DNA of 64,000 nucleotides from Escherichia coli (GTDB taxonomy: Bacteria; Pseudomonadota; Gammaproteobacteria; Enterobacterales; Enterobacteriaceae): NCBI RefSeq assembly GCF_048403405.1, contig NZ_CP183129.1; one strand, 5' to 3'. The position numbers and the translations under genes were made by a program. How positions within the stretch are numbered: position 1 is the stretch's first letter; each line of letters begins with the position of its first letter. A model generated the notes under the pieces. The model was not told the DNA's origin, did no database searches, and saw only the letters and a program-made list of their open reading frames with translations. Below, piece by piece: positions 3,480 through 51,925 of this stretch.

Positions 3480-5021
<1,542 letters not shown>

Positions 5022-5199
5022 AAAAGTTTGATGCTCAAAGAATTAAACTTCGTAATGAATTACGTGTTCACTCTTGAGACTTGGTATTCATTTTTCGTCT
5101 TGCGACGTTAAGAATCCGTATCTTCGAGTGCCCACACAGATTGTCTGATAAATTTTTAAAGAGCAGTGCCGCTTCGCTTTTTCTCAGCGGCGCGGGGTG

Positions 5200-5375
5200 T
5201 GCATAATACGCCTTCCCGCTACAGAGTCAAGCATTTTTTTGCTTTTCTCTGTTGAGATTCTCAGGAGAACCCCGCTGACCCGGCGACGTGTTTGCCGTTG
5301 TTCCGTGTCAGTGGTGGCGCATTATAGGGAGTTATTCCGGCCTGACAAGAGGAAATTTAAAATAATTTTCTGACC
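5200..5375 (-). promoter_or_regulatory. rrnB P1 and P2 promoters with UP element
   Basis: On the minus strand: P1 -35 TTGTCA (5343-5348) and -10 TATAAT (5321-5326) preceded by the A/T-rich UP element AGAAAATTATTTTAAATTTCCT; P2 -35 TTGACT (5225-5230) and -10 TATTAT (5203-5208). Matches the remembered rrnB promoter sequence. Confidence 0.85.
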
Positions 5376-5393
5376 GCGCAACATTCAACCAAA

Positions 5394-6263
5394 TCAGTCT
5401 AAAACTGCCAGTTTTTCGAGCGTTTCGAAGCCGTAACGCTGTAAAACGGGCAATAATTGTTCAGCTTCTGGCGTCATTGCCATACAAAAGGCAATATTCG
5501 CATCGGCAGATTTTGCATCCGGGGCTTCATGCTCTAGCAACCAGGCCGTTCGGCGAGCAATCGCTGCGCCAGAATCCACCAGCCGGGTTCCCTCTGGCAG
5601 CACCTGTAACAGTTCTTCTTGTAGTAGAGGGAAATGGGTACACCCCAGTACAACGGTATCTGGCGGCTCTTTCATTCTTAACCACGGACGCAAGATACGT
5701 TTTAGCGCATCCAGAGAAACATCTTCGCCATGCAGCTTCGCTTCAGCCAACTCAACCATCTCTGCCGAGCCCAGCATTTCTATCTGGCATTCATTAGCGA
5801 AACGCGCGATCAGCTCATGAGTATAAGAACGTTTAACTGTTCCGCGGGTTGCCAGTAATCCGACAATGCCATTTGCCGTCAGACGTGCAGCAGGTTTAAT
5901 CGCCGGCACGACACCAACAACCGGGAAGTCGAACTTTTCGCGTAATGCAGGAAGTGAAACGGTACTGGCAGTGTTGCAAGCGACCACAGCCAGCGCAAGG
6001 GGATAACGTTTTTGCACTGCGGTGATAATTGCCACCACTCGCTCAACAATAAACGCTTCGCTTTTTTCGCCATACGGGAAAGCGACGTTATCGAAAGCAT
6101 AAATGTAATGGAGATCCGGTAAGAGATGCCGGATCTCGTCATAGACCGACAACCCACCGACGCCGGAGTCAAACACCAGCACGGTGGGACGTGGTTCAGA
6201 AGGTGTAGCTGCCAGACAAGGTGTATTCCCGTCCTGCAGTTTGGTAGCCATAGACTGTCTCAT
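5394..6263 (-). CDS. murI: glutamate racemase
   Basis: 289-aa ORF with the MurI sequence (…[15 protein letters not shown]…); sits immediately upstream of the rrn operon as in K-12. Confidence 0.9.
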
Positions 6264-8039
6264 AATCTTTGTCGAACAGGTTGGCTATTTTACCACGAAC
6301 TGTCAGGTGAGAGGTGACCGGATACGCAACCGCAAGATCCCACAAGCTCACACCACCCATTTTAACGGTTTGATAAGGATAAGATGAGTAATCCTTATCA
6401 TAGCGAGTGCCTAAATACTGATAAGTAATACCCCAGTCGAAGTCATACAACTGCCAGTCGAGCTGGTATTTCACCTGCTGTTTAGCACGGCGTAACAACG
6501 GCGTGTCAGTAATCGCATTGCGCGCATCGACATAATCATAACTCACAGTATGCGTCAGTGGTCCGGTATCAAAATTGGCGGTCGCCTCGACGCCCTTAAT
6601 CCGCGCTTTCCCTTCGTTGTAATATTTCAGGGTGTGATCATCATAATCGATCAAATCACTGACATCGTTACGATATCCGGAAATACGCCAGTTCACCCCA
6701 GCGGTTAAGCCTTCAAACGCGCCTTCCCACTGTTTGCTTTTCTCAGGATTCAGATTCGGATTTCCGTAGAAACCATACAGTTGCCCAAGATTAGGTGCCT
6801 TGTACGACGTGCCATAAGAAGCGATAAAACGATAGCCTTCGATGAATTCCCAACCGGCACTCGTTTGCCAGGTTCCATGACGACCAAACTGTGAGTTATC
6901 GTCGCTGCGGGCTGCGCCTTCAAACGTAAAATCGCCGACTTGTTGCAGCCCAGTCAGATAGATGCCGGTATTACGTTGATCATATCCATCCTTAACATAA
7001 GCTGTGCCCGGTGCCGTGCTCTGCTTCTGCCAGTCAACGCCCGCACCAATATTACCGTGGCCAACGGTAACGTTATTTGCCCACTGGACGGTGTACTGCT
7101 TCATCTCATCCAGCGTCGCGGACGAATCATAACGGCCATAATGGGGATCGTAGTTGTAATCTTTGCTATGGCTATAGCTGGTAATGAGTTGTGATTTAAT
7201 CAGTTCACCGTTATAGCGCAGCCCGGCGTCCCAACTTTGGCTATAGAGTTTACGGGTATCGAGCAACGGTGAGCCGGGAGAATAATACGCGTCATAATTG
7301 GTACGGTTATCATAGCCATAGCCGCGCACAAAGCCGCTCCAGGCATCAGTAAAGTTATGCTCCAGCGCGCCATAAAGCGTTTTACTTAAAAAACCATCGT
7401 TATCTGTCTGCGCTTGCGTTCCGGTATTCCCATAGGCAACAACATCATAACCATGAGTATGGGCATAATCGCCCAACAGCGTTACCCGTGTCTTATCCCC
7501 CAGTTGTTGCTGCGTGGAGACATCATAGTTCTGATAACTATTGCTTCCCCACCCTGCTGAAATTTCCGTTCCGGGTTCATCGCGCGTCGTGATGATATTC
7601 ACCACCCCGCCTATTGCATCGGAACCATAAACAGCGGAGCGCGGTCCACGGATATATTCAATACCTGGACAAGCGCAATAGGGAACTGGCTAAGGTCGGC
7701 AGAACCACTCACTCCCGCCAGATTCAGGCGGACGCCATCAATTAACACCAGCACATGACTGGCATTTGTACCGCGAATAAAAATAGATGAGAGCTGACCT
7801 GAACCGCCGTTTTGGGTGATATCGACACCCGGAAGACGGCGCAGAACATCATTGACTGAGGTCGACTGCCAGCGGTCAATATCCTGACGCGTCACAACGG
7901 TGGTTGGTGCAAGCACAGTGCTGCGCGGCTGTTCAAAACGGTTAGCAGTAACAACGAGAGTATCCGGGCTGGTATCCTGTGCCCAAGCGGAAAAGGCTGT
8001 GACGGAAAACGCCGTCAGCAGCGAAGCTTTTTTAATCAT
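6196..8039 (-). pseudogene. btuB: vitamin B12/colicin/phage BF23 outer-membrane receptor BtuB, disrupted by a frameshift near 7660
   Basis: Two minus-strand ORFs in different frames (7611..8084, 157 aa; 6196..7605, 469 aa) together cover BtuB. The first ends …[27 protein letters not shown] where BtuB, as I recall it, continues …[34 protein letters not shown]…; the downstream frame encodes [32 protein letters not shown]…. True start is the internal MIKKASLL at 8039. Confidence 0.8.
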
Positions 8040-8044
8040 TGTAA

Positions 8045-8285
8045 AGCATCCACAATAGAAGAAGGATGCCGCAGGTTTCATCAATATTACGCGATGATGA
8101 GAACCAGATGCGACGTTAGCCGGCAGGTCTTCGGGCTTGGAGGGGTATCTAAGATACTAAGAGATGATGACTTCCCACCGGATGGCAGTGTCCGCATAAC
8201 GCAATCATCGCACCTTTCCTTACCGCTGCGCGTCAGCTCCAGATTTGCACTGGATTCCCTATTAACTCACAGGACCGGCGAGTGG
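8045..8285 (-). promoter_or_regulatory. cobalamin (B12) riboswitch in the btuB 5' leader
   Basis: Reverse complement of 8040-8290 matches the remembered btuB leader (…GCCGGUCCUGUGAGUUAAUAGGGAAUCCAGUGCGAAUCUGGAGCUGACGCGCAGCGGUAAGG…); the plus-strand ORF 8094..8333 here is spurious. Confidence 0.8.
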
Positions 8286-8407
8286 ATGCTACAGGTTGTA
8301 ACAAGTTACTGTCCAGACTTAGCTCACAAATAGGAATACATCAAGATCTGGACATCTGATGAGCAATCCCTACAATCGCCGCGTACTTTAATTTTTCAGG
8401 ATACATC

Positions 8408-9508
8408 ATGACCCCCGAACACCTTCCAACAGAACAGTATGAAGCGCAGTTAGCCGAAAAAGTGGTACGTTTGCAAAGTATGATGGCACCGTTTTCTAAC
8501 CTGGTTCCGGAAGTGTTTCGCTCGCCGGTCAGTCATTACCGGATGCGTGCGGAGTTCCGCATCTGGCACGATGGCGATGACCTGTATCACATCATTTTCG
8601 ATCAACAAACCAAAAGCCGCATCCGCGTGGATAGCTTCCCCGCCGCCAGTGAACTTATCAACCAGTTGATGACGGCGATGATTGCGGGTGTGCGTAATAA
8701 TCCCGTTCTGCGCCACAAGTTGTTCCAGATTGATTACCTCACCACGCTGAGTAATCAGGCGGTGGTTTCCCTGCTGTACCATAAGAAGCTGGATGATGAG
8801 TGGCGTCAGGAAGCGGAAGCCCTGCGCGATGCACTGCGAGCGCAGAATCTGAATGTGCATCTGATTGGTCGGGCAACGAAAACCAAAATCGCGCTGGACC
8901 AGGATTACATCGATGAACGTCTGCCAGTCGCAGGGAAAGAGATGATCTACCGTCAGGTAGAAAACAGCTTTACCCAGCCGAACGCGGCGATGAATATTCA
9001 GATGCTGGAATGGGCGCTGGACGTCACCAAAGGCTCAAAAGGCGATTTACTGGAGCTGTACTGCGGCAACGGTAACTTTTCATTAGCACTGGCGCGCAAT
9101 TTTGATCGGGTATTAGCCACCGAAATCGCTAAGCCGTCGGTCGCTGCCGCGCAATACAACATTGCCGCTAACCATATTGATAACGTACAAATTATTCGTA
9201 TGGCGGCAGAAGAATTTACTCAGGCGATGAATGGCGTACGCGAGTTTAACCGCCTGCAAGGGATCGATTTAAAGAGTTATCAGTGCGAAACCATTTTTGT
9301 CGACCCACCACGCAGCGGTCTGGACGGTGAAACCGAGAAAATGGTGCAGGCGTATCCACGTATTCTGTATATCTCCTGCAATCCGGAAACGTTATGCAAG
9401 AATCTGGAAACATTAAGTCAGACGCACAAGGTCGAACGTCTGGCTCTGTTTGATCAGTTCCCCTACACGCACCATATGGAATGCGGCGTATTACTGACCG
9501 CGAAGTAA
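8408..9508 (+). CDS. trmA: tRNA (uracil54-C5)-methyltransferase
   Basis: 366-aa [22 protein letters not shown]…; SAM-methyltransferase motifs; K-12 synteny. Confidence 0.9.
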
Positions 9509-9511
9509 AAT

Positions 9512-9540
9512 CCATGCCGGGTGCGCCAGCATCCGGCATG
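9512..9540. repeat. REP-like palindromic hairpin between convergent trmA and yijD
   Basis: ATGCCGGGTGCGCCAGCATCCGGCAT forms an inverted repeat of the GCCGGATGC REP type. Confidence 0.5.
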
Positions 9541-9547
9541 ATACCGA

Positions 9548-9907
9548 TTACTCAGCAACTTCCTGCTTACGGTTACGCATCTTCGCGCCAATCCAGAACA
9601 CCATAATGACGGACAGTACTGCCGGGAAGAAGTTAGAGCCGATATCCGGATATTCCGCACGAACTACCGTGCTGTACAGCAGTACGCCGAGAATAAAACA
9701 GGCAGCTGCCAGACCCGGCAAGCCTACCGGCATAGTGCGATTAAGATAACGTTGATGCAGGCAGTAAACCGTCAGCACCAGGGAAATAATCGGGAATACA
9801 GAAAATGGCACAATGGAGCTAAACAGCGCTGCGAAAGTACCATTAATCGATAAGCCAGCCACCAGCGCCAGCAGCAGCGTACCTCTATCTTGATTTGCTT
9901 GTTTCAT
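9548..9907 (-). CDS. yijD: inner membrane protein YijD
   Basis: 119-aa hydrophobic ORF directly downstream of fabR, as in K-12. Confidence 0.8.
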
Positions 9908-10554
9908 TACTCGTCCTTCACATTTCCCGGAATAATTGCGGTTTTCTCTTGTTCACGGCGATACCAGTAATAAGCCCCTTTCGAAATCATTCGCAGTTGC
10001 AGTACCAGTCGCTCTTCTAATTGCCGACGTTGTTCGACGCCGACGTCCAACGCCTCGGCACCCGCACTGAAGACAATCGTCACCATGGCTTCGGCTTGCG
10101 CTTCAGTAAACGCACGCGGCATATGGTTTTCGAGTTCCAGATAGTCCGCAAGTTCCGCAATGAAGTGCTGAATTTCACGCGCAACGGCAGCACGAAACGC
10201 AGCGGAGGTGCCGGAGCGTTCCCGCAATAATAACCGGAAGGCGTTAGGATTATTACCGATGAACTCCATAAATGTGGAGACCGAGGTGCGGATCACACTC
10301 CCGCCTTTGGCGATACGCTGACGCGCCTGGCGCATGAGTTGGCGTAGCATTAAACCGCTCTCATCAACCATGGTCAGACCCAGTTCGTCTACGTCGCGGA
10401 AATGCCGATAAAAAGAGGTGGGAGCAATGCCCGCTTCACGCGCCACTTCACGCAAACTCAGGCTGGCGAAGCTGCGTTCAGCACTTAATTGGCTAAATGC
10501 GGCTTCCACCAGCGAACGGCGGGTTTTTTCTTTTTGTTGCGCTCTTACGCCCAT
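9907..10554 (-). CDS. fabR: TetR-family repressor of unsaturated fatty acid synthesis FabR
   Basis: ORF 9907..10650; the FabR start is most likely the internal Met ([20 protein letters not shown]…), giving 215 aa; TetR-type HTH. Confidence 0.85.
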
Positions 10555-46974: not shown

Positions 46975-47738
46975 GGTGATGCCTCCAATTAGTTGAATTA
47001 AGGATATAATACTCGCTTTTAAGGTTGTTTCATGGTCACAGTTAACCTTCATTGTCCCCGTTGCCAGTCCGTTCAGGTTTACCGTCACGGGCAGAACCCC
47101 AAAAGACATGATCGATTCCGCGGCCGTGACTGTCACCGGGTATTTCAACTCAGTTACTGTTACGAGCCCCGTAAACCGGGAGTTAAAGACCAAATCGCTG
47201 AAATGGCTTTCAACGGTGCCGGGGTTCGCTATACTGCCCGTACGCTGAAAATCGGCATTAATACAGTCATCCGAACTTTAAAAAACTCTCGCCACGAAGA
47301 ATAACGTCATCCCCGGTCGCTCATGCTGATGTGGCACTCATCTGCGAACGTAGTCAGCAATGGAGCTTTGTCGGCAGTAAAGCGCGACAGCACTGGCTCT
47401 GGTACGTGTACAACACGAAAACTGGTGGTGTTCTGGCCTACACTTTTGGCCCCCGGACTGATGAAACCTGTCGTGAACTGCTGGCGCTGCTTACCCTTTT
47501 ACCATCGGCATGTTGACCACTGACGAATGGGGTAGTTACGCTAGAGAGTTACCAAAGGAGAAGCATCTGACTGGTAAGATTTTTACTCAGCACATTGAGC
47601 GTAACAATCTGACCCTGAGAACCCGAATCAAACGTCTGGCCCGCAGAACCATCTGTTTCTCGCGTTCTGTAGAACTTCATGAAAAAGTCATCGGTGCTTT
47701 TATCGAAAATATATGTTCTACTAATTGGAGTCATCACC
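46975..47738 (+). mobile_element. divergent IS1-family insertion sequence (about 764 bp)
   Basis: Terminal inverted repeats GGTGATGCCTCCAATTAG (46975) and CTAATTGGAGTCATCACC (ending 47738) resemble IS1 ends; the insA-like ORF (47032..47304) has the CPRC…C..C zinc ribbon; insB-like frames 47331..47516 and 47510..47824 are in different frames and one reads through the right IR. Confidence 0.75.
47032..47304 (+). CDS. insA: IS1-family InsA-like protein
   Basis: 90-aa ORF MVTVNLHCPRCQSVQVYRHGQNPKRHDRFRGRDCHRVFQ…NGAGVRYTARTLKIGINTVIRTLKN, clearly related to but divergent from K-12 InsA. Confidence 0.75.
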   Translation: MVTVNLHCPRCQSVQVYRHGQNPKRHDRFRGRDCHRVFQLSYCYEPRKPGVKDQIAEMAFNGAGVRYTARTLKIGINTVIRTLKNSRHEE

Positions 47739-47793
47739 CTTCTGATGAGCTTTCCTTGGATGATTACCAGACTGAATACACAGCCAAAGATTT

Positions 47794-48117
47794 TTACCTC
47801 ATTCTGCTCTTTTTTCTCAAATGACATATATTATATTTTACATCATATTCATAGGTATATGACATTCCCCCGCCCCCCATTATGTCATTGTGGGTTGATG
47901 TTGGGCTTTCATAAAAAAATACATCTTTTTTTGAACTAGCATTAATTATATTTACTTTATATATTAAAATATTTTCTCCATCTGGAAATATTTTAGCCAC
48001 ACAATATAAAGCAGCTAAATCCGAATTACTTAAAAATATATTGTCATCACTCATAACTCCAGCCATTAAATGACTGGAGACTAAAGCAAGGAAATAACAA
48101 CATTGTATTGCCTTCAT
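47794..48117 (-). CDS. putative immunity protein for the orphan Rhs C-terminal toxin
   Basis: Small AT-rich ORF starting one nucleotide after the orphan toxin stop (TAA-A-ATG, with GGGAG upstream); predicted start MKAIQCCYFLALVSSHLMAG is signal-peptide-like. Assigned by position only. Confidence 0.5.
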   Translation of the reverse strand: MKAIQCCYFLALVSSHLMAGVMSDDNIFLSNSDLAALYCVAKIFPDGENILIYKVNIINASSKKDVFFYESPTSTHNDIMGGGGMSYTYEYDVKYNICHLRKKSRMR

Positions 48118-48118
48118 T

Positions 48119-49378
48119 TTAATTACTCCCTTGCCTGATAATTGCAACTCCATTCCCTTTAGCTTTGGGATTATATTTTAGATAGGTGTTATTTGGTGTT
48201 CCCAAGTAACTACTGTATTCTTTTTTTCCCATTCCATTCATATAAGAATTCGTTAAATCTTTGCTTGAAAAATTTAGACTATCATAAACATCATTTTCTT
48301 TTGTTACTTTATTTCCTTTATCGTCAGAGTAAAAACCGTGAGTGTGATAATCACCTACTCTCTCTGAACCTTCAGGGCATTTTATATTTCGCAAGTCTAC
48401 ACTATCATTATCATTTGAACTTATCGGATTCATAGGGAAATATTCACCTTGCTTCTTACATATTAGTCCACCATATTCTTTATTCTTGTTAATTGATTCT
48501 CCATTACACATTGCCAATGCAAATATTCCAATATCATCTATATTTTTTGATTTAAATTCATATAATCCTAATGGATCCATGCCATTCACCGGGCTCAGCG
48601 GATATGTATACAGGTTCCATCCCCCCTTCAGCCCAATCGGATCCTGAGTGATATACCGCCCCTGCAGCGGGTCATAATAGCGGTGGCGGTTGTAATACAG
48701 GCCGGACTCCTCATCATACTGCTGACCCGGCAGGCGGATGAGCTGCTGCAGCTGATGCGGGTTCTCTTCATTCAGCTGGTTACCCCATTCATCGTATTCT
48801 GCGCACCATTCTGTTGCCCCTTCCGTGCTGACAAGCGCCAGCGGCAGGCCGCGATGGTCGCAGTGGTACAGGTGGATTTTTCGCGCCGGCGTGTACACCG
48901 GGTCCATCTGGTTTTGTATCTGCTCCACCGTCAGGCCGCACGATGCCAGCCAGCGGCGGCTTTCCTCGCTCACCCGGTCAGCCAGGATTTCACTTTCCAG
49001 CCGGTCGAGCATCTGCACCAGCACCGGCGGGAACACCACACTGCCACCGTCTTCACCGCCGGACTGCTGAAGCGCATCCGCCAGGCTGCGGCGCTGCGTT
49101 TTCGCCAGCTCACCGGTGGCAGTTTCAACTCTGATGAGTGGCGTGAAGCTCCCCGGCTGATAAACCGTCTGGATGCGGGTTCTGTCGTTCTGTATTGTGG
49201 TCAGCCGGTCGCCGTCCCAGCCGTACCAGGTCACTTCCGGTTTCCATGACAGCGACATCCAGCCCGTCAGGTCCCGTTCACGCCGCCATACCCGTTTTGC
49301 CACCCTGCGGCCCAGCAGGTCGTAAAGATAGCGACTTTCGACCAGCGGCTCTGCATATTGTGTCCGCGTGTAGTGCAC
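48119..49378 (-). CDS. orphan Rhs C-terminal module (core-end fragment plus alternative toxin tip)
   Basis: 419-aa ORF that begins inside rhs core sequence (…[30 protein letters not shown]…), passes the DPLGL demarcation and ends in an AT-rich unique tip (…[16 protein letters not shown]…). The track start is a GTG; core homology continues upstream to about 49620 with no ribosome-binding context. Confidence 0.85.
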
Positions 49379-49612
49379 CAGCCGGTGCCGGCTGTCGTAA
49401 TGGTACCGGTGAGTCCGCTCATCATCCGTGCGGATAACCCCTTCCGGGATGAGGTCGGTTTTCTCCGTCAGCCTGCCGTGACGGTCATACCGGTAAAGAT
49501 AGTGCGCGTCACGGGCGATACGGTTATCCGGCCATGCGCTGAGGGGGCTGTCCGGGTGCAGCTCCGGGTCGGGCAGGCGGTTGCCTGCCGGGTCCGTGGC
49601 ATACGGGATATC
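48612..49612. repeat. roughly 1 kb rhs core-end direct repeat (orphan copy)
   Basis: Near-identical to 52940..53940 (offset 4328 bp; only scattered mismatches by eye). Confidence 0.9.
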
Positions 49613-49654
49613 AATGCCCAGGTTACATATAATAATAAGAGCAATTAACTTAAT

Positions 49655-49981
49655 TTATTTGTTTATAATGCGCTTACTTAATACAAACCATTGAATATAC
49701 CCTCCTGACAGAAAATAAAGCCATATTATTATCGCCATAATATACTTACTATCAATCCTTACGCCAATAATGTCTGAAACAGTCCCTATAAATATTAGAG
49801 CAATAAAGAATACTATGCCTGTTGGAAAACAGATTACCATCATTCCATAAGACATGAGACTAATTAACTCGCTCACATCACGAGTGGAGTCTAATAGTGA
49901 AAGTCTATGCATGGAAAAGAATAGTATTAAAAGCGATAAAGCCAGCCATATAGCTCTGAATAAAAAAATAATATATTTCAT
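49655..49981 (-). CDS. small hypothetical membrane protein with three predicted TM helices
   Basis: 108-aa AT-rich ORF MKYIIFLFRAIWLALSLLILFF… inside the rhs island; function unknown. Confidence 0.45.
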   Translation of the reverse strand: MKYIIFLFRAIWLALSLLILFFSMHRLSLLDSTRDVSELISLMSYGMMVICFPTGIVFFIALIFIGTVSDIIGVRIDSKYIMAIIIWLYFLSGGYIQWFVLSKRIINK

Positions 49982-50085
49982 TACATCACTCCGGTGAATA
50001 CAAATCTAATAAAGCGTCCAATGTTATTTCCGGAGCACTTCATCTTACATGTTTCTAAAGAATCATTAGACCAGTCAGGGCAAGA

Positions 50086-51221
50086 TTACGAAAGCCCGCT
50101 CCCCGCAAGGACTGACGCGAGATAGTTTCTGTCCATGGCTGCTTTTCGCATCTTACGTCTTAACCCTGCCTTGAATACCTTATCATTCGTCAAAATATTA
50201 ATAGCAATGTGCCGTATCCCTGAAAATAATTCTGCTGCGTTTCCTCTTCTTATTTTGCAGTCGTCTTCATTCATTACCACGTCCAGACGCCAGTGCAGCT
50301 TATTCTCCACGTGCCAGTGGTTTCGGATTGCTGTGGCGAACTTCTCAGCGGTTAAATCAGCAGAGCTGATATAATATCTGACCGTCATTTCTGGCTCTTT
50401 CTTTTGTTCTGCTATTATTGACCGAAAGGAGACTGCCACGTATAATTTTTCAGTCCTTTCCATTCAAATGTAAAATCAATAAGTTCATCAGGGACATCGC
50501 AAACAATATGAAGACGGATTTCTTCTCTGCCGTGACTCTTTTCACTAATTGCGTAACTGTCATGCTCTGGATTAATTAATTCTTTCAGCGGAAATGTTTC
50601 CTCAAAGGCTTTATTCAGCCGCCCCTGGTTTCCTTTTACAGCGAATAAGTAATCACCACCCTGTTTTTGTATCTTCTCTGCAATATCTTTCTGGCAACCC
50701 ATCGCATCAGTTGTGATGATTTTCTCTTTAATATACAAAATGTTAAGAAGTTCAGGGATAGCTGTGATCTCATTAGATTTCTCATCCGTCCTGATCTGCC
50801 CCAGGACCAGAATGTGCATTGTTGAGAACGCACTAATGACATGAATCGCTCCCCTGCGGCGACTCTTGTCATAAGAATGCCGGAGTGTTTTTCCATCAAT
50901 TGCGATGACGTCTTTATCATCTGAAGTATGGCAATCTCGCATCCAGTTAATAAAGCACTCGTGAAATTTTGCAGGACTGATACAGGATACAACTCTGGCG
51001 ATGGTATCGTGAACAGGAATACCATTTTCAAAATCACCGTATTGTTTTAAAAAATCGAGATGTGTTTCCCCAAAATCCTCTATATCTTCCCAACCTTCTG
51101 CACCCGAAATAACGGCACAAATAGTCAACAGTAGAATATCCGATAATTTATGTTCCACTTTCCAGGCTTGTCTGTAATCGGGGATAATAGAAATATGCTC
51201 CATCAATTTTTTAAGTTCCAT
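50086..51221 (-). pseudogene. H-repeat-associated (ISAs1-family) transposase, split by a frameshift
   Basis: ORFs 50415..51221 (268 aa, [51 protein letters not shown]…) and 50086..50463 (125 aa, …[32 protein letters not shown]…) overlap in different frames and together resemble the roughly 378-aa K-12 H-rpt proteins. Confidence 0.7.
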
Positions 51222-51755
51222 TTTGTTCTCCTTAATTATGTAAGGAGTATTTGATCATGTATAAGCAATAAAAAACAGCTTTAGGTAATGAGGAATATCT
51301 CAATTTTCAAACATAAAATGCGAATTATTTAGTACAAAAAAGCAGCGTTACGTGATCTTTCCCTGGCATGTCATTAGATGAACCAGTTATACAACCCTCG
51401 GAACAGAATCGAGGTCCTAAAGACGGACCAAAAGCGTTTAAACAACTATGTATTGAAAATCCATTACGATTATAAGTTCCTGTATTAACTGACGGTACTA
51501 ATCGTATGCCGTCAGGTTTTCTATTGCTTGCTCCCGGGTCATTAACATTCCAACTCCATAGGCCTTGAGGTATTGGCCCTCTATTTATAAATGTGTACAA
51601 CGGGGATTATTTTTACATTGCATATTATTACCAGAAGCGACTGGAATACTAAGCACATCATAAAAATTATCATCACCTGGTATATCTGAAACACACGAAA
51701 GCATACCTAAAGTTATGCTGTATAAACAGGTGGCTAATCCCAAGGGGATCGATTC

Positions 51756-51925
51756 CAGAAATCGGGTTCAACGGATACTGATAAAAATTCCACCTACCTT
51801 CCAGCCCAATCGGAGCCTGAGTGTTATACCGCCCCTGCTGCGGTTAATGTTACCGATAATAGTTATAGTACAGCCCTGATTCATCATCATACTACTGCTG
51901 CGGCAGTCTGATGAATTATTGCTTT
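51756..51925. repeat. degenerate third copy of the rhs core-end segment
   Basis: CAACGGATACTGATAAAAATTCCACCTACCTTCCAGCCCAATCGGAGCCTGAGTGTTATACCGCCCCTG… aligns with the main core end at 52925-53090 with many substitutions and stops. Confidence 0.7.

Follow-up and report, generated by a model that had tools for sequence, protein, structure and literature searches.

What is a short, AT-rich reading frame doing inside an rhs island of Escherichia coli, squeezed between an orphan rhs fragment and an H-repeat element? The question is raised by positions 49655..49981 of a 64,000-nucleotide stretch of contig NZ_CP183129.1 (NCBI RefSeq assembly GCF_048403405.1), referred to below as the window. A preliminary description reported there an unannotated 108-aa membrane protein with three helices and considered two origins for it, namely an immunity protein separated from its toxin tip by the H-repeat, or cargo of the H-repeat itself. 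The reading frame is an already known and annotated gene, ybfB. We consider it likely, with good confidence, that ybfB is the gene of the immunity protein cognate to the C-terminal toxin tip of RhsC (RhsC-CT), left here as an intact orphan by an H-repeat insertion sequence (IS) of the ISAs1 family; we infer immunity from synteny and from co-divergence with the toxin.

An intact ybfB gene behind a truncated rhsC tip

The argument depends on four features of the window:

49655..49981, minus strand: ybfB coding sequence, 108 aa and stop (listing of open reading frames [ORFs]; identity to YbfB of E. coli K-12)
49981..50082, minus strand: 3' stub of an rhsC-type toxin tip, its last 33 codons (...QDWSNDSLETCKMKCSGNNIGRFIRFVFTGVM) and the stop (alignment to K-12 rhsC/ybfB)
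49989..49992, minus strand: Shine-Dalgarno sequence GGAG, 7 nt upstream of the ybfB ATG and within the end of the toxin reading frame (read from the sequence)
50076..51369, minus strand: H-repeat, an ISAs1-family IS (Pfam DDE_Tnp_1_assoc and DDE_Tnp_1; NCBIfam transpos_ISAs1)

The frame runs on the minus strand from the ATG at 49981 to the TAA at 49655, 108 codons in all, exactly where the preliminary description had placed it. The same description had correctly recorded an AT-rich frame between an orphan rhs fragment (48119..49624) and the H-repeat (50076..51369), the GC content of ybfB being 31.5% compared to ~63% in the adjoining rhs core DNA. The encoded protein is WP_000873944.1, identical in 108/108 residues to YbfB of K-12 (b0702), an uncharacterised protein encoded downstream of rhsC and listed as a "predicted inner membrane protein" (PMC5493296). 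The ybfB DNA of the window and of K-12 is 99.4% identical, and the two differing positions both leave the protein unchanged. The two loci also have in common the ribosome-binding site (RBS; the GGAG is the same in the alignment), the TAATG stop/start overlap and the orphan rhs core that follows ybfB. They differ in site, the gene being located in the rpmE-yiiX rhs island in the window and in the ybfA-rhsC locus in K-12, and in the upstream toxin gene, which is intact in K-12 and reduced by ISAs1 to a 33-codon stub in the window.

A megablast search of all complete RefSeq E. coli genomes, the collection to which all genome counts below refer, found ybfB DNA in 2693 of 5426 genomes (2659 of them at 99% identity or more), and the RefSeq product name for the matching DNA is everywhere "ybfB: protein YbfB". 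The gene is thus annotated, contrary to the preliminary description. In strain CFSAN061763, DNA 100% identical to the ybfB of the window is found in a gene order matching that of the window, namely rpmE, a full-length rhs, a Sel1-like gene, an rhs pseudogene, a frameshifted ISAs1, a partial "hypothetical protein", ybfB, an rhs fragment, dsORF-f3, IS1, yiiX and metJ. For annotators there is nothing unusual in this result, and the surrounding locus looks like any other rhs island in decay. In the literature, many uses of the name ybfB refer to an unrelated ybfB of Tn7 and integrons, and ybfB is a hit in a diet screen with Caenorhabditis elegans (PMC12706066).

YbfB is a member of a conserved protein family. 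Close relatives detected by a word-based homology search come from E. coli, Shigella and Salmonella, the least similar being 53% identical, and an exhaustive profile search returned 83 representatives at 50% clustering (E<=1e-3), most of them 105-130 aa long. Residues W12, P53, W87, Q97 and W98 are invariant in an alignment of 29 family sequences, and the C-terminus carries a conserved G-Y-x-Q-W-F motif followed by a basic tail. Neither Pfam nor NCBIfam provides a family for YbfB, and a scan of all 29 family members gave scattered noise only. Purifying selection acts on the gene: the comparison of E. coli with Salmonella gives a dN/dS of 0.26, and the deeper pairs for which a value could be obtained give 0.23-0.30.

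These data bear on the possibility that the frame is H-repeat cargo or a chance frame in AT-rich DNA. The frame does adjoin the H-repeat, and its low GC content is unlike that of its flanks. However, a frame of at least 108 aa arose by chance in only 43 of 20,000 shuffles (0.2%) of the 361-bp AT-rich stretch, and the conservation of the family and the dN/dS value also speak against a spurious frame. As to cargo, the H-repeat homology runs from 51369 to 50076 and stops outside ybfB, which is instead contiguous with DNA of the rhsC locus, ybfB and the downstream orphan rhs core together being 97% identical to their K-12 counterparts. In 2534 genomes it is rhsC, rather than an IS, that lies directly upstream of ybfB, and the H-repeat of the K-12 locus is found further downstream, with ybfB outside it. 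We therefore reject both the passenger gene and the spurious frame, and regard the probability of either as negligible.

In K-12 (locus L002) rhsC occupies positions 4808..9001 and ybfB positions 9001..9327, with a one-base overlap (TAATG), and the intact junction of rhsC tip and ybfB is present in the 2534 genomes mentioned above. Rhs immunity genes classically occupy just this position, with the start of ybfB falling on the final base of rhsC. Alignment of the window with K-12 shows near-identity from the start of ybfB through the stub, with one substitution upstream of the ATG, and then ends abruptly. The 102-bp stub remains joined to ybfB and terminates at the boundary of the H-repeat, which has the same orientation as ybfB and whose end is the break point of the toxin tip. 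In a blastn comparison, window positions 50082..48588 correspond to 8900-10394 of the K-12 locus, a segment that takes in the stub and ybfB and extends through the core of the orphan rhs fragment beyond. In a tblastn comparison the stub matches residues 151-188 of RhsC-CT; RefSeq carries it as a partial hypothetical protein. Judged from its sequence, the stub cannot be an active toxin, having lost almost the entire fold along with the invariant His. The RhsC-CT hidden Markov model (HMM) has no match anywhere in the window, where nothing of RhsC-CT is present beyond the 33-codon stub.

The same arrangement recurs. A junction of ISAs1, stub and ybfB identical to that of the window was counted in 148 genomes. 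The part of the rhsC tip specific to the toxin is present in 2548 genomes compared to 2693 with ybfB; these counts, taken in aggregate over the collection, fit a loss of the RhsC toxin altogether in the genomes with the ISAs1 junction. In strain ML35 (L022, NZ_CP025747.1, 5750..7001), where the tip is at its native rhsC locus, an independent disruption by ISKpn26 of the IS5 family has left ybfB intact. This is a second, independent toxin loss with retention of the immunity gene. The earlier suggestion that the H-repeat has parted an immunity protein from its tip is supported by the overlap with the rhsC stop in 2534 genomes, by the 102-bp stub at the IS boundary and by the YbfB partners in other genera described below.

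Linkage of the toxin domain and YbfB across taxa

Homologues of the RhsC tip were found down to 44% identity. The loci examined were from Salmonella (two module types), Enterobacter cloacae, Buttiauxella, one JGI metagenome and Citrobacter youngae. To these were added five metagenome-assembled genomes (MAGs) from Gammaproteobacteria, Burkholderiales, Nitrospirae and a bacterium without classification. Distant YbfB-like proteins led to two more loci, and still more distant ones to a further three. A scan of genome contigs with the toxin alignment, which used strict peptide patterns, returned 6 loci. When HMMs built from both alignments were applied, a YbfB-family ORF was found 2-230 bp downstream of the toxin domain and on the same strand in 16/16 distinct toxin-domain loci, with no exception among those that allowed an assessment. 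A search for homologues next to Rhs tips had been proposed in the preliminary description, and its outcome is that each toxin tip in the 16 loci has a YbfB-like gene behind it.

The two partners also diverge together. Over 14 pairs, the more two toxins differ, the more their partners tend to differ as well (Mantel r=0.45; p about 4e-4 by permutation), a signal to which the shared ancestry of linked genes contributes, and the mean identity is 26% for the YbfB partner versus 46% for the toxin, i.e., the partner diverges faster. Two properties of Rhs immunity proteins (RhsI) are observed here: 1) their genes lie on the same strand directly downstream of the tip, as observed in the K-12 overlap, the window stub and the 16 loci, and 2) they vary with the toxin and diverge faster than it does, as the correlation and the two identity values indicate. 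Strict synteny, co-divergence and retention of the orphan gene together constitute the signature of a cognate immunity protein, as distinct from proof of neutralisation.

Strict synteny and co-divergence demonstrate a partnership and not its direction, and on that ground YbfB could be an accessory factor of the toxin, such as a membrane partner for its maturation, export or action, rather than its antidote. We find this improbable. The small ORF directly after the tip of Rhs and contact-dependent inhibition (CDI) proteins is an immunity gene wherever tested (PMC3150448; PMC12994826), the faster evolution of the partner is what one sees in immunity proteins, and ybfB is kept after loss of the toxin in 148 genomes and in ML35, which would make little sense for the helper of an absent toxin.

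The linkage likewise bears on the proposal that YbfB has nothing to do with Rhs and serves as a housekeeping protein of the membrane, for example one with a role in osmotic regulation in view of its proximity to kdpFABC in K-12. The proposal goes back to one paper, which relied on the K-12 gene neighbourhood only (PMC9976479). In the window, by contrast, ybfB lies between rpmE and yiiX/metJ, far from kdp and still joined to the rhsC stub; the gene is missing from half of E. coli; and in other genera the ybfB-like gene is always found behind the toxin domain. A role in osmotic regulation based on proximity to kdp is rejected on synteny, and a housekeeping function in general is very improbable.

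Some of the loci show features of interest in their own right. The rhs array of Salmonella enterica AAINLG010000045.1 (L003) contains two RhsC-CT/YbfB-like modules at 4083..4777 and 8773..9413, one with an N-terminally truncated toxin domain and the other with a complete toxin domain and a YbfB-like gene cut by the contig end. Orphan tips similar to RhsC-CT are very common in Salmonella, some clusters occurring on 1000 contigs or more. In Enterobacter cloacae NPNK01000002.1 (L007), the segment 1..1371 upstream of the RhsC-CT-like orphan module encodes a tip with a weak match to PLA2G12 (phospholipase A2) and, behind it, an ankyrin-repeat protein; the array thus seems to hold another toxin-immunity module directed at lipids. 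Both partners have a variant architecture in a Logan contig of SRR29757258 (L021, 3..1319), where a distant RhsC-CT-like tip is carried by a protein with an N-terminal part composed of repeated domains of ~100 aa (YVIADAVMI...) and the YbfB-like partner, 183 aa long, has an extra N-terminal hydrophobic extension.

A putative membrane-directed toxin and its membrane partner

RhsC-CT is a cysteine-rich domain of about 125-150 aa that follows a DPxGL motif. An alignment of 17 toxin sequences contains an invariant His30 (YHQYLC), an invariant Cys118 (NCQ[DE]W), a CGGQD motif and eight further Cys that are invariant or nearly so. His30 and Cys118 are ~88 residues apart and are surrounded in RhsC-CT by FYHQYLC and KNCQDWS, respectively. 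An AlphaFold2 model of the domain (pLDDT 75, pTM 0.71) has as its structural relatives E. coli YiiX (7.1), PLAAT4 (6.2), Aichivirus 2A (6.2) and TseH (5.9), followed at lower rank by a Bacillus cereus cysteine peptidase (5.8), a PPPDE desumoylase (5.3) and CLN5 (5.2). In permuted NlpC/P60 enzymes a conserved His precedes a conserved Cys, as it does in RhsC-CT, and this order together with the "NC" motif fits that superfamily. The modelled fold resembles permuted NlpC/P60 enzymes, which act on the acyl chains of membrane lipids. The many conserved Cys would form disulfides and hence suggest action in the periplasm. That RhsC-CT acts on the membrane is a guess, for which the basis is a moderate fold match and analogy.

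YbfB is strongly hydrophobic (GRAVY 1.22). The three hydrophobic segments of the preliminary description are recovered as Kyte-Doolittle peaks at residues 4-22, 47-65 and 83-101, while its count of three helices is probably too low: the AlphaFold2 model (pLDDT 94) has four, at 2-29, 33-50, 54-72 and 79-107. Helices two and three are separated at an invariant FP(x)G, where Pro53 splits the middle hydrophobic block. Across the 29 family members the number of K+R per sequence is 2.3 in the N-terminal region and 4.5 in the C-tail, and family charge counts show two net acidic connecting loops and a 51-53 turn without charge. Basic segments of membrane proteins favour the cytoplasmic side (the positive-inside rule). 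Since both tails are basic and the loops acidic, an even number of membrane passes is favoured, and the charge pattern favours a topology in which the chain crosses the membrane four times, keeps its N- and C-terminus in the cytoplasm and exposes two short loops to the periplasm. A fold search with the YbfB model was uninformative.

On present evidence the closest characterised analogue of the pair appears to be Tox-Act1/Imm-Act1 of Salmonella, which belongs to a different family. Tox-Act1 is a permuted NlpC/P60 phospholipase active on phosphatidylglycerol (PG) and phosphatidylethanolamine (PE); it kills from the periplasm only and requires its catalytic His and Cys, and it is neutralised by Imm-Act1, a small integral membrane protein with two transmembrane (TM) helices encoded directly downstream (Nicastro et al., PLoS Biol 2026, PMC12994826). 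The likeness extends to the permuted NlpC/P60-type fold (predicted for RhsC-CT) with His before Cys, to the structural relatives, since the RhsC-CT model matches the same ones (YiiX, PLAAT/LRAT and TseH), and to a small membrane protein encoded directly behind the toxin, as YbfB is. The differences are several. The catalytic surroundings are TGHGAAF and NNCTTHS in Tox-Act1 (from published primers) compared to FYHQYLC and KNCQDWS in RhsC-CT, with a His-Cys spacing of 108 versus 88 residues; the E. coli homologue of Tox-Act1 matches Pfam DUF4105, whereas RhsC-CT matches no Pfam family; and RhsC-CT is part of an Rhs protein, in contrast to Tox-Act1, for the most part a cargo effector that stands alone. 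The two TM helices of Imm-Act1 and its termini MTNKFWIR...LILLAFKKIR are unlike the four predicted helices and the termini of YbfB, and we do not assign YbfB to the Imm-Act1 family; for both Tox-Act1 and Imm-Act1 the comparison used primer-derived fragments only, and a search with a chimeric query assembled from such peptides yielded no candidate. In the part of the supplementary tables of PMC12994826 that was available, RhsC and YbfB are missing.

Other candidate relatives of the toxin fit less well. TseH, a Vibrio cholerae effector (PDB 6v98) that belongs to a type VI secretion system (T6SS), has no sequence similarity to RhsC-CT in the HMM search of the PDB and, unlike the Rhs-fused RhsC-CT, is a stand-alone effector. 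RhsC-CT has no profile match to Tox-Act1/DUF4105, TseH/DUF6695, LRAT or YiiX/Peptidase_C92. The name Tox-HDC, given to a family with H, D and C on RHS proteins (Zhang et al. 2012, PMC3482391), was considered for RhsC-CT and set aside as unsupported by Pfam; the first 300,000 characters of that paper contain no mention of RhsC, ybfB, LRAT or YiiX.

A broader proposal is that RhsC-CT and YbfB represent an unnamed toxin-immunity family without a Pfam model, distributed from Enterobacterales to Burkholderiales and Nitrospirae MAGs, in which a disulfide-rich permuted NlpC/P60 enzyme would attack, from the periplasm, either lipoproteins or the lipids of the membrane, an integral membrane protein with four helices would neutralise it at the membrane, and an IS-orphaned ybfB would be kept as stand-alone protection. 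Taken with all its parts, this proposal is tentative, and we give it slightly less than an even chance.

Persistence of the presumed orphan gene in a decaying island

The sequence of events that we consider for the locus is as follows. In most E. coli, ybfB would be translationally coupled to rhsC and would protect the producer and its kin. RhsC-CT would act as a permuted NlpC/P60 enzyme attacking inner-membrane lipids from the periplasmic side, and the two short acidic periplasmic loops of YbfB may bind and block the toxin at the membrane surface. In the window, the H-repeat/ISAs1 would have replaced all but the last 33 codons of the tip, ybfB surviving with its own RBS. No terminator-like hairpin was found in 49400..50400, an interval covering the 104-bp gap between the IS transposase ORFs and ybfB, and for this reason the orphan gene may be transcribed by read-through from the co-oriented IS. 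A strain with only ybfB would then be protected from the carriers of RhsC-CT, roughly half of E. coli.

Several observations weigh against ybfB being an orphaned immunity gene that still protects its host. Similarity to the toxin or to YbfB was the route by which the loci were collected, so that they are not an independent sample, and two further YbfB-like contexts could not be assessed, P0108 for want of available DNA and L020 for want of upstream sequence. The enzymatic assignment of the toxin finds no echo in several searches: 1) Foldseek of the RhsC-CT model against the PDB gave nothing significant, 2) the toxin profile, run as an HMM against the sequences in the PDB, retrieved no match, 3) none of the 17 toxin-family members has a Pfam match at E<=10, and 4) hhalign of the toxin profile against the single sequences of YiiX (as encoded at this locus) and PLAAT3 was not significant, with a probability below 1%. 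The best local hhalign match to PLAAT3 paired NCQD with NCEH, in an alignment that as a whole is not significant. The topology of YbfB has charge counts as its only basis. There is no convincing sigma-70 promoter upstream of ybfB, where the sole nearby match overlaps the start codon and the scan does not exceed the shuffle expectation, and a putative internal promoter region in rhsC upstream of ybfB, marked by a minor-sigma SELEX peak (PMC5493296), is mostly lost in the window. Finally, we found in the literature no experiment on RhsC-CT or YbfB and no functional study of ybfB.

The promoter results lead directly to the alternative that ybfB is here an intact but silent relic, orphaned by IS activity, untranscribed, of no benefit and yet to decay. 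The rhsC promoter is missing, as is nearly all of the rhsC sequence upstream, no credible promoter match replaces them, and the frameshifted pseudogenes of the ISAs1 transposase and IS1 indicate that the island is decaying; moreover, two protein-neutral substitutions relative to K-12 are too few to prove selection since orphaning. On the other hand, the same junction with an intact ybfB occurs in 148 complete genomes, and the independent IS5 disruption in ML35 likewise spared ybfB. The intact RBS, the co-orientation with the IS ORFs and the lack of a terminator-like hairpin make read-through possible, and the retention of orphan immunity genes is well described (PMC12288458; PMC10539506). We judge a silent relic unlikely, though it deserves more weight than the other alternatives considered above.

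An orphaned immunity gene would have ample precedent. Orphan rhs-CT/rhsI modules and orphan immunity genes have been described for Rhs as well as CDI loci (Poole et al. 2011, PMC3150448; Salmonella T6SS review, PMC12288458), where, as in the window, arrays of displaced tips with their immunity genes lie downstream of a full-length rhs, immunity genes are kept without a functional toxin, and mobile elements are nearby. The usual orphan consists of a whole tip and its immunity gene, whereas in the window the catalytic part of the tip has been removed at the IS boundary and the immunity gene stands alone.

The surroundings of ybfB in the window include three further rhs-related features:

51325..51890, minus strand: second truncated orphan rhs module, with an rhs core end (about 51727..51890) and a Tlde1-like tip ORF (51325..51600) running into the IS (tblastn, Pfam)
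48119..49624, minus strand: orphan rhs fragment directly downstream of ybfB, core end and DUF4329 tip (NCBIfam RHS_core positions 991-1261; Pfam RHS, and DUF4329 with E=2e-15)
47794..48117, minus strand: dsORF-f3, small ORF after the DUF4329 tip, presumed immunity gene (RefSeq name "RHS element protein dsORF-f3" in an identical arrangement; ORF listing)

In the blastn comparison the H-repeat shares 95% identity with ybfL, the H-repeat of K-12, across 1295 bp. Its transposase is frameshifted, with ORFs at 50415..51221 and 50086..50463 that match NCBIfam transpos_ISAs1 with E-values of 3e-87 and 1.4e-29, and it is annotated as frameshifted in the matching genome as well. On the far side of the IS, the core end of the second module was located by a tblastn match at 51843..51727; the Pfam match of its tip to Tlde1_dom is weak (E=0.0034), and the module is a pseudogene in the matching genome. 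The H-repeat is flanked by two different truncated tips and therefore marks a deletion or a joint of IS-by-IS recombination and not a simple insertion.

Downstream of ybfB, the core of the orphan rhs fragment is homologous to K-12 ybfO/rhsO (97% identity), the K-12 homology reaching 48588. The tip and the ORF after this core differ from those of K-12 (ybfO tip and ybfC), an example of tip displacement. A frameshifted IS1 follows dsORF-f3. Upstream, the full-length rhs at 52404..56633 ends in a C-terminal tip of ~165 aa without a Pfam match, and the Sel1/TPR-like protein of 155 aa encoded behind it at 51925..52392 is its presumed immunity protein. An Rfam scan of 47000..53000 returned nothing.

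The genes ybfB and the RhsC tip, both present in K-12 and so far without an assigned function, thus receive a specific and cheaply testable hypothesis, namely that they form a toxin-immunity pair of the lipid-targeting permuted NlpC/P60 kind. The ISAs1 junction in 148 genomes and the independent IS5 event provide a population-scale record of an immunity gene outliving its toxin, and the retention of orphan immunity genes bears on competition among gut E. coli. If the hypothesis is true, common laboratory hosts of E. coli, including K-12, would already be immune to the RhsC-CT toxin family, and the ybfB carried by K-12 and related strains may mask the toxicity of this family in standard assays.

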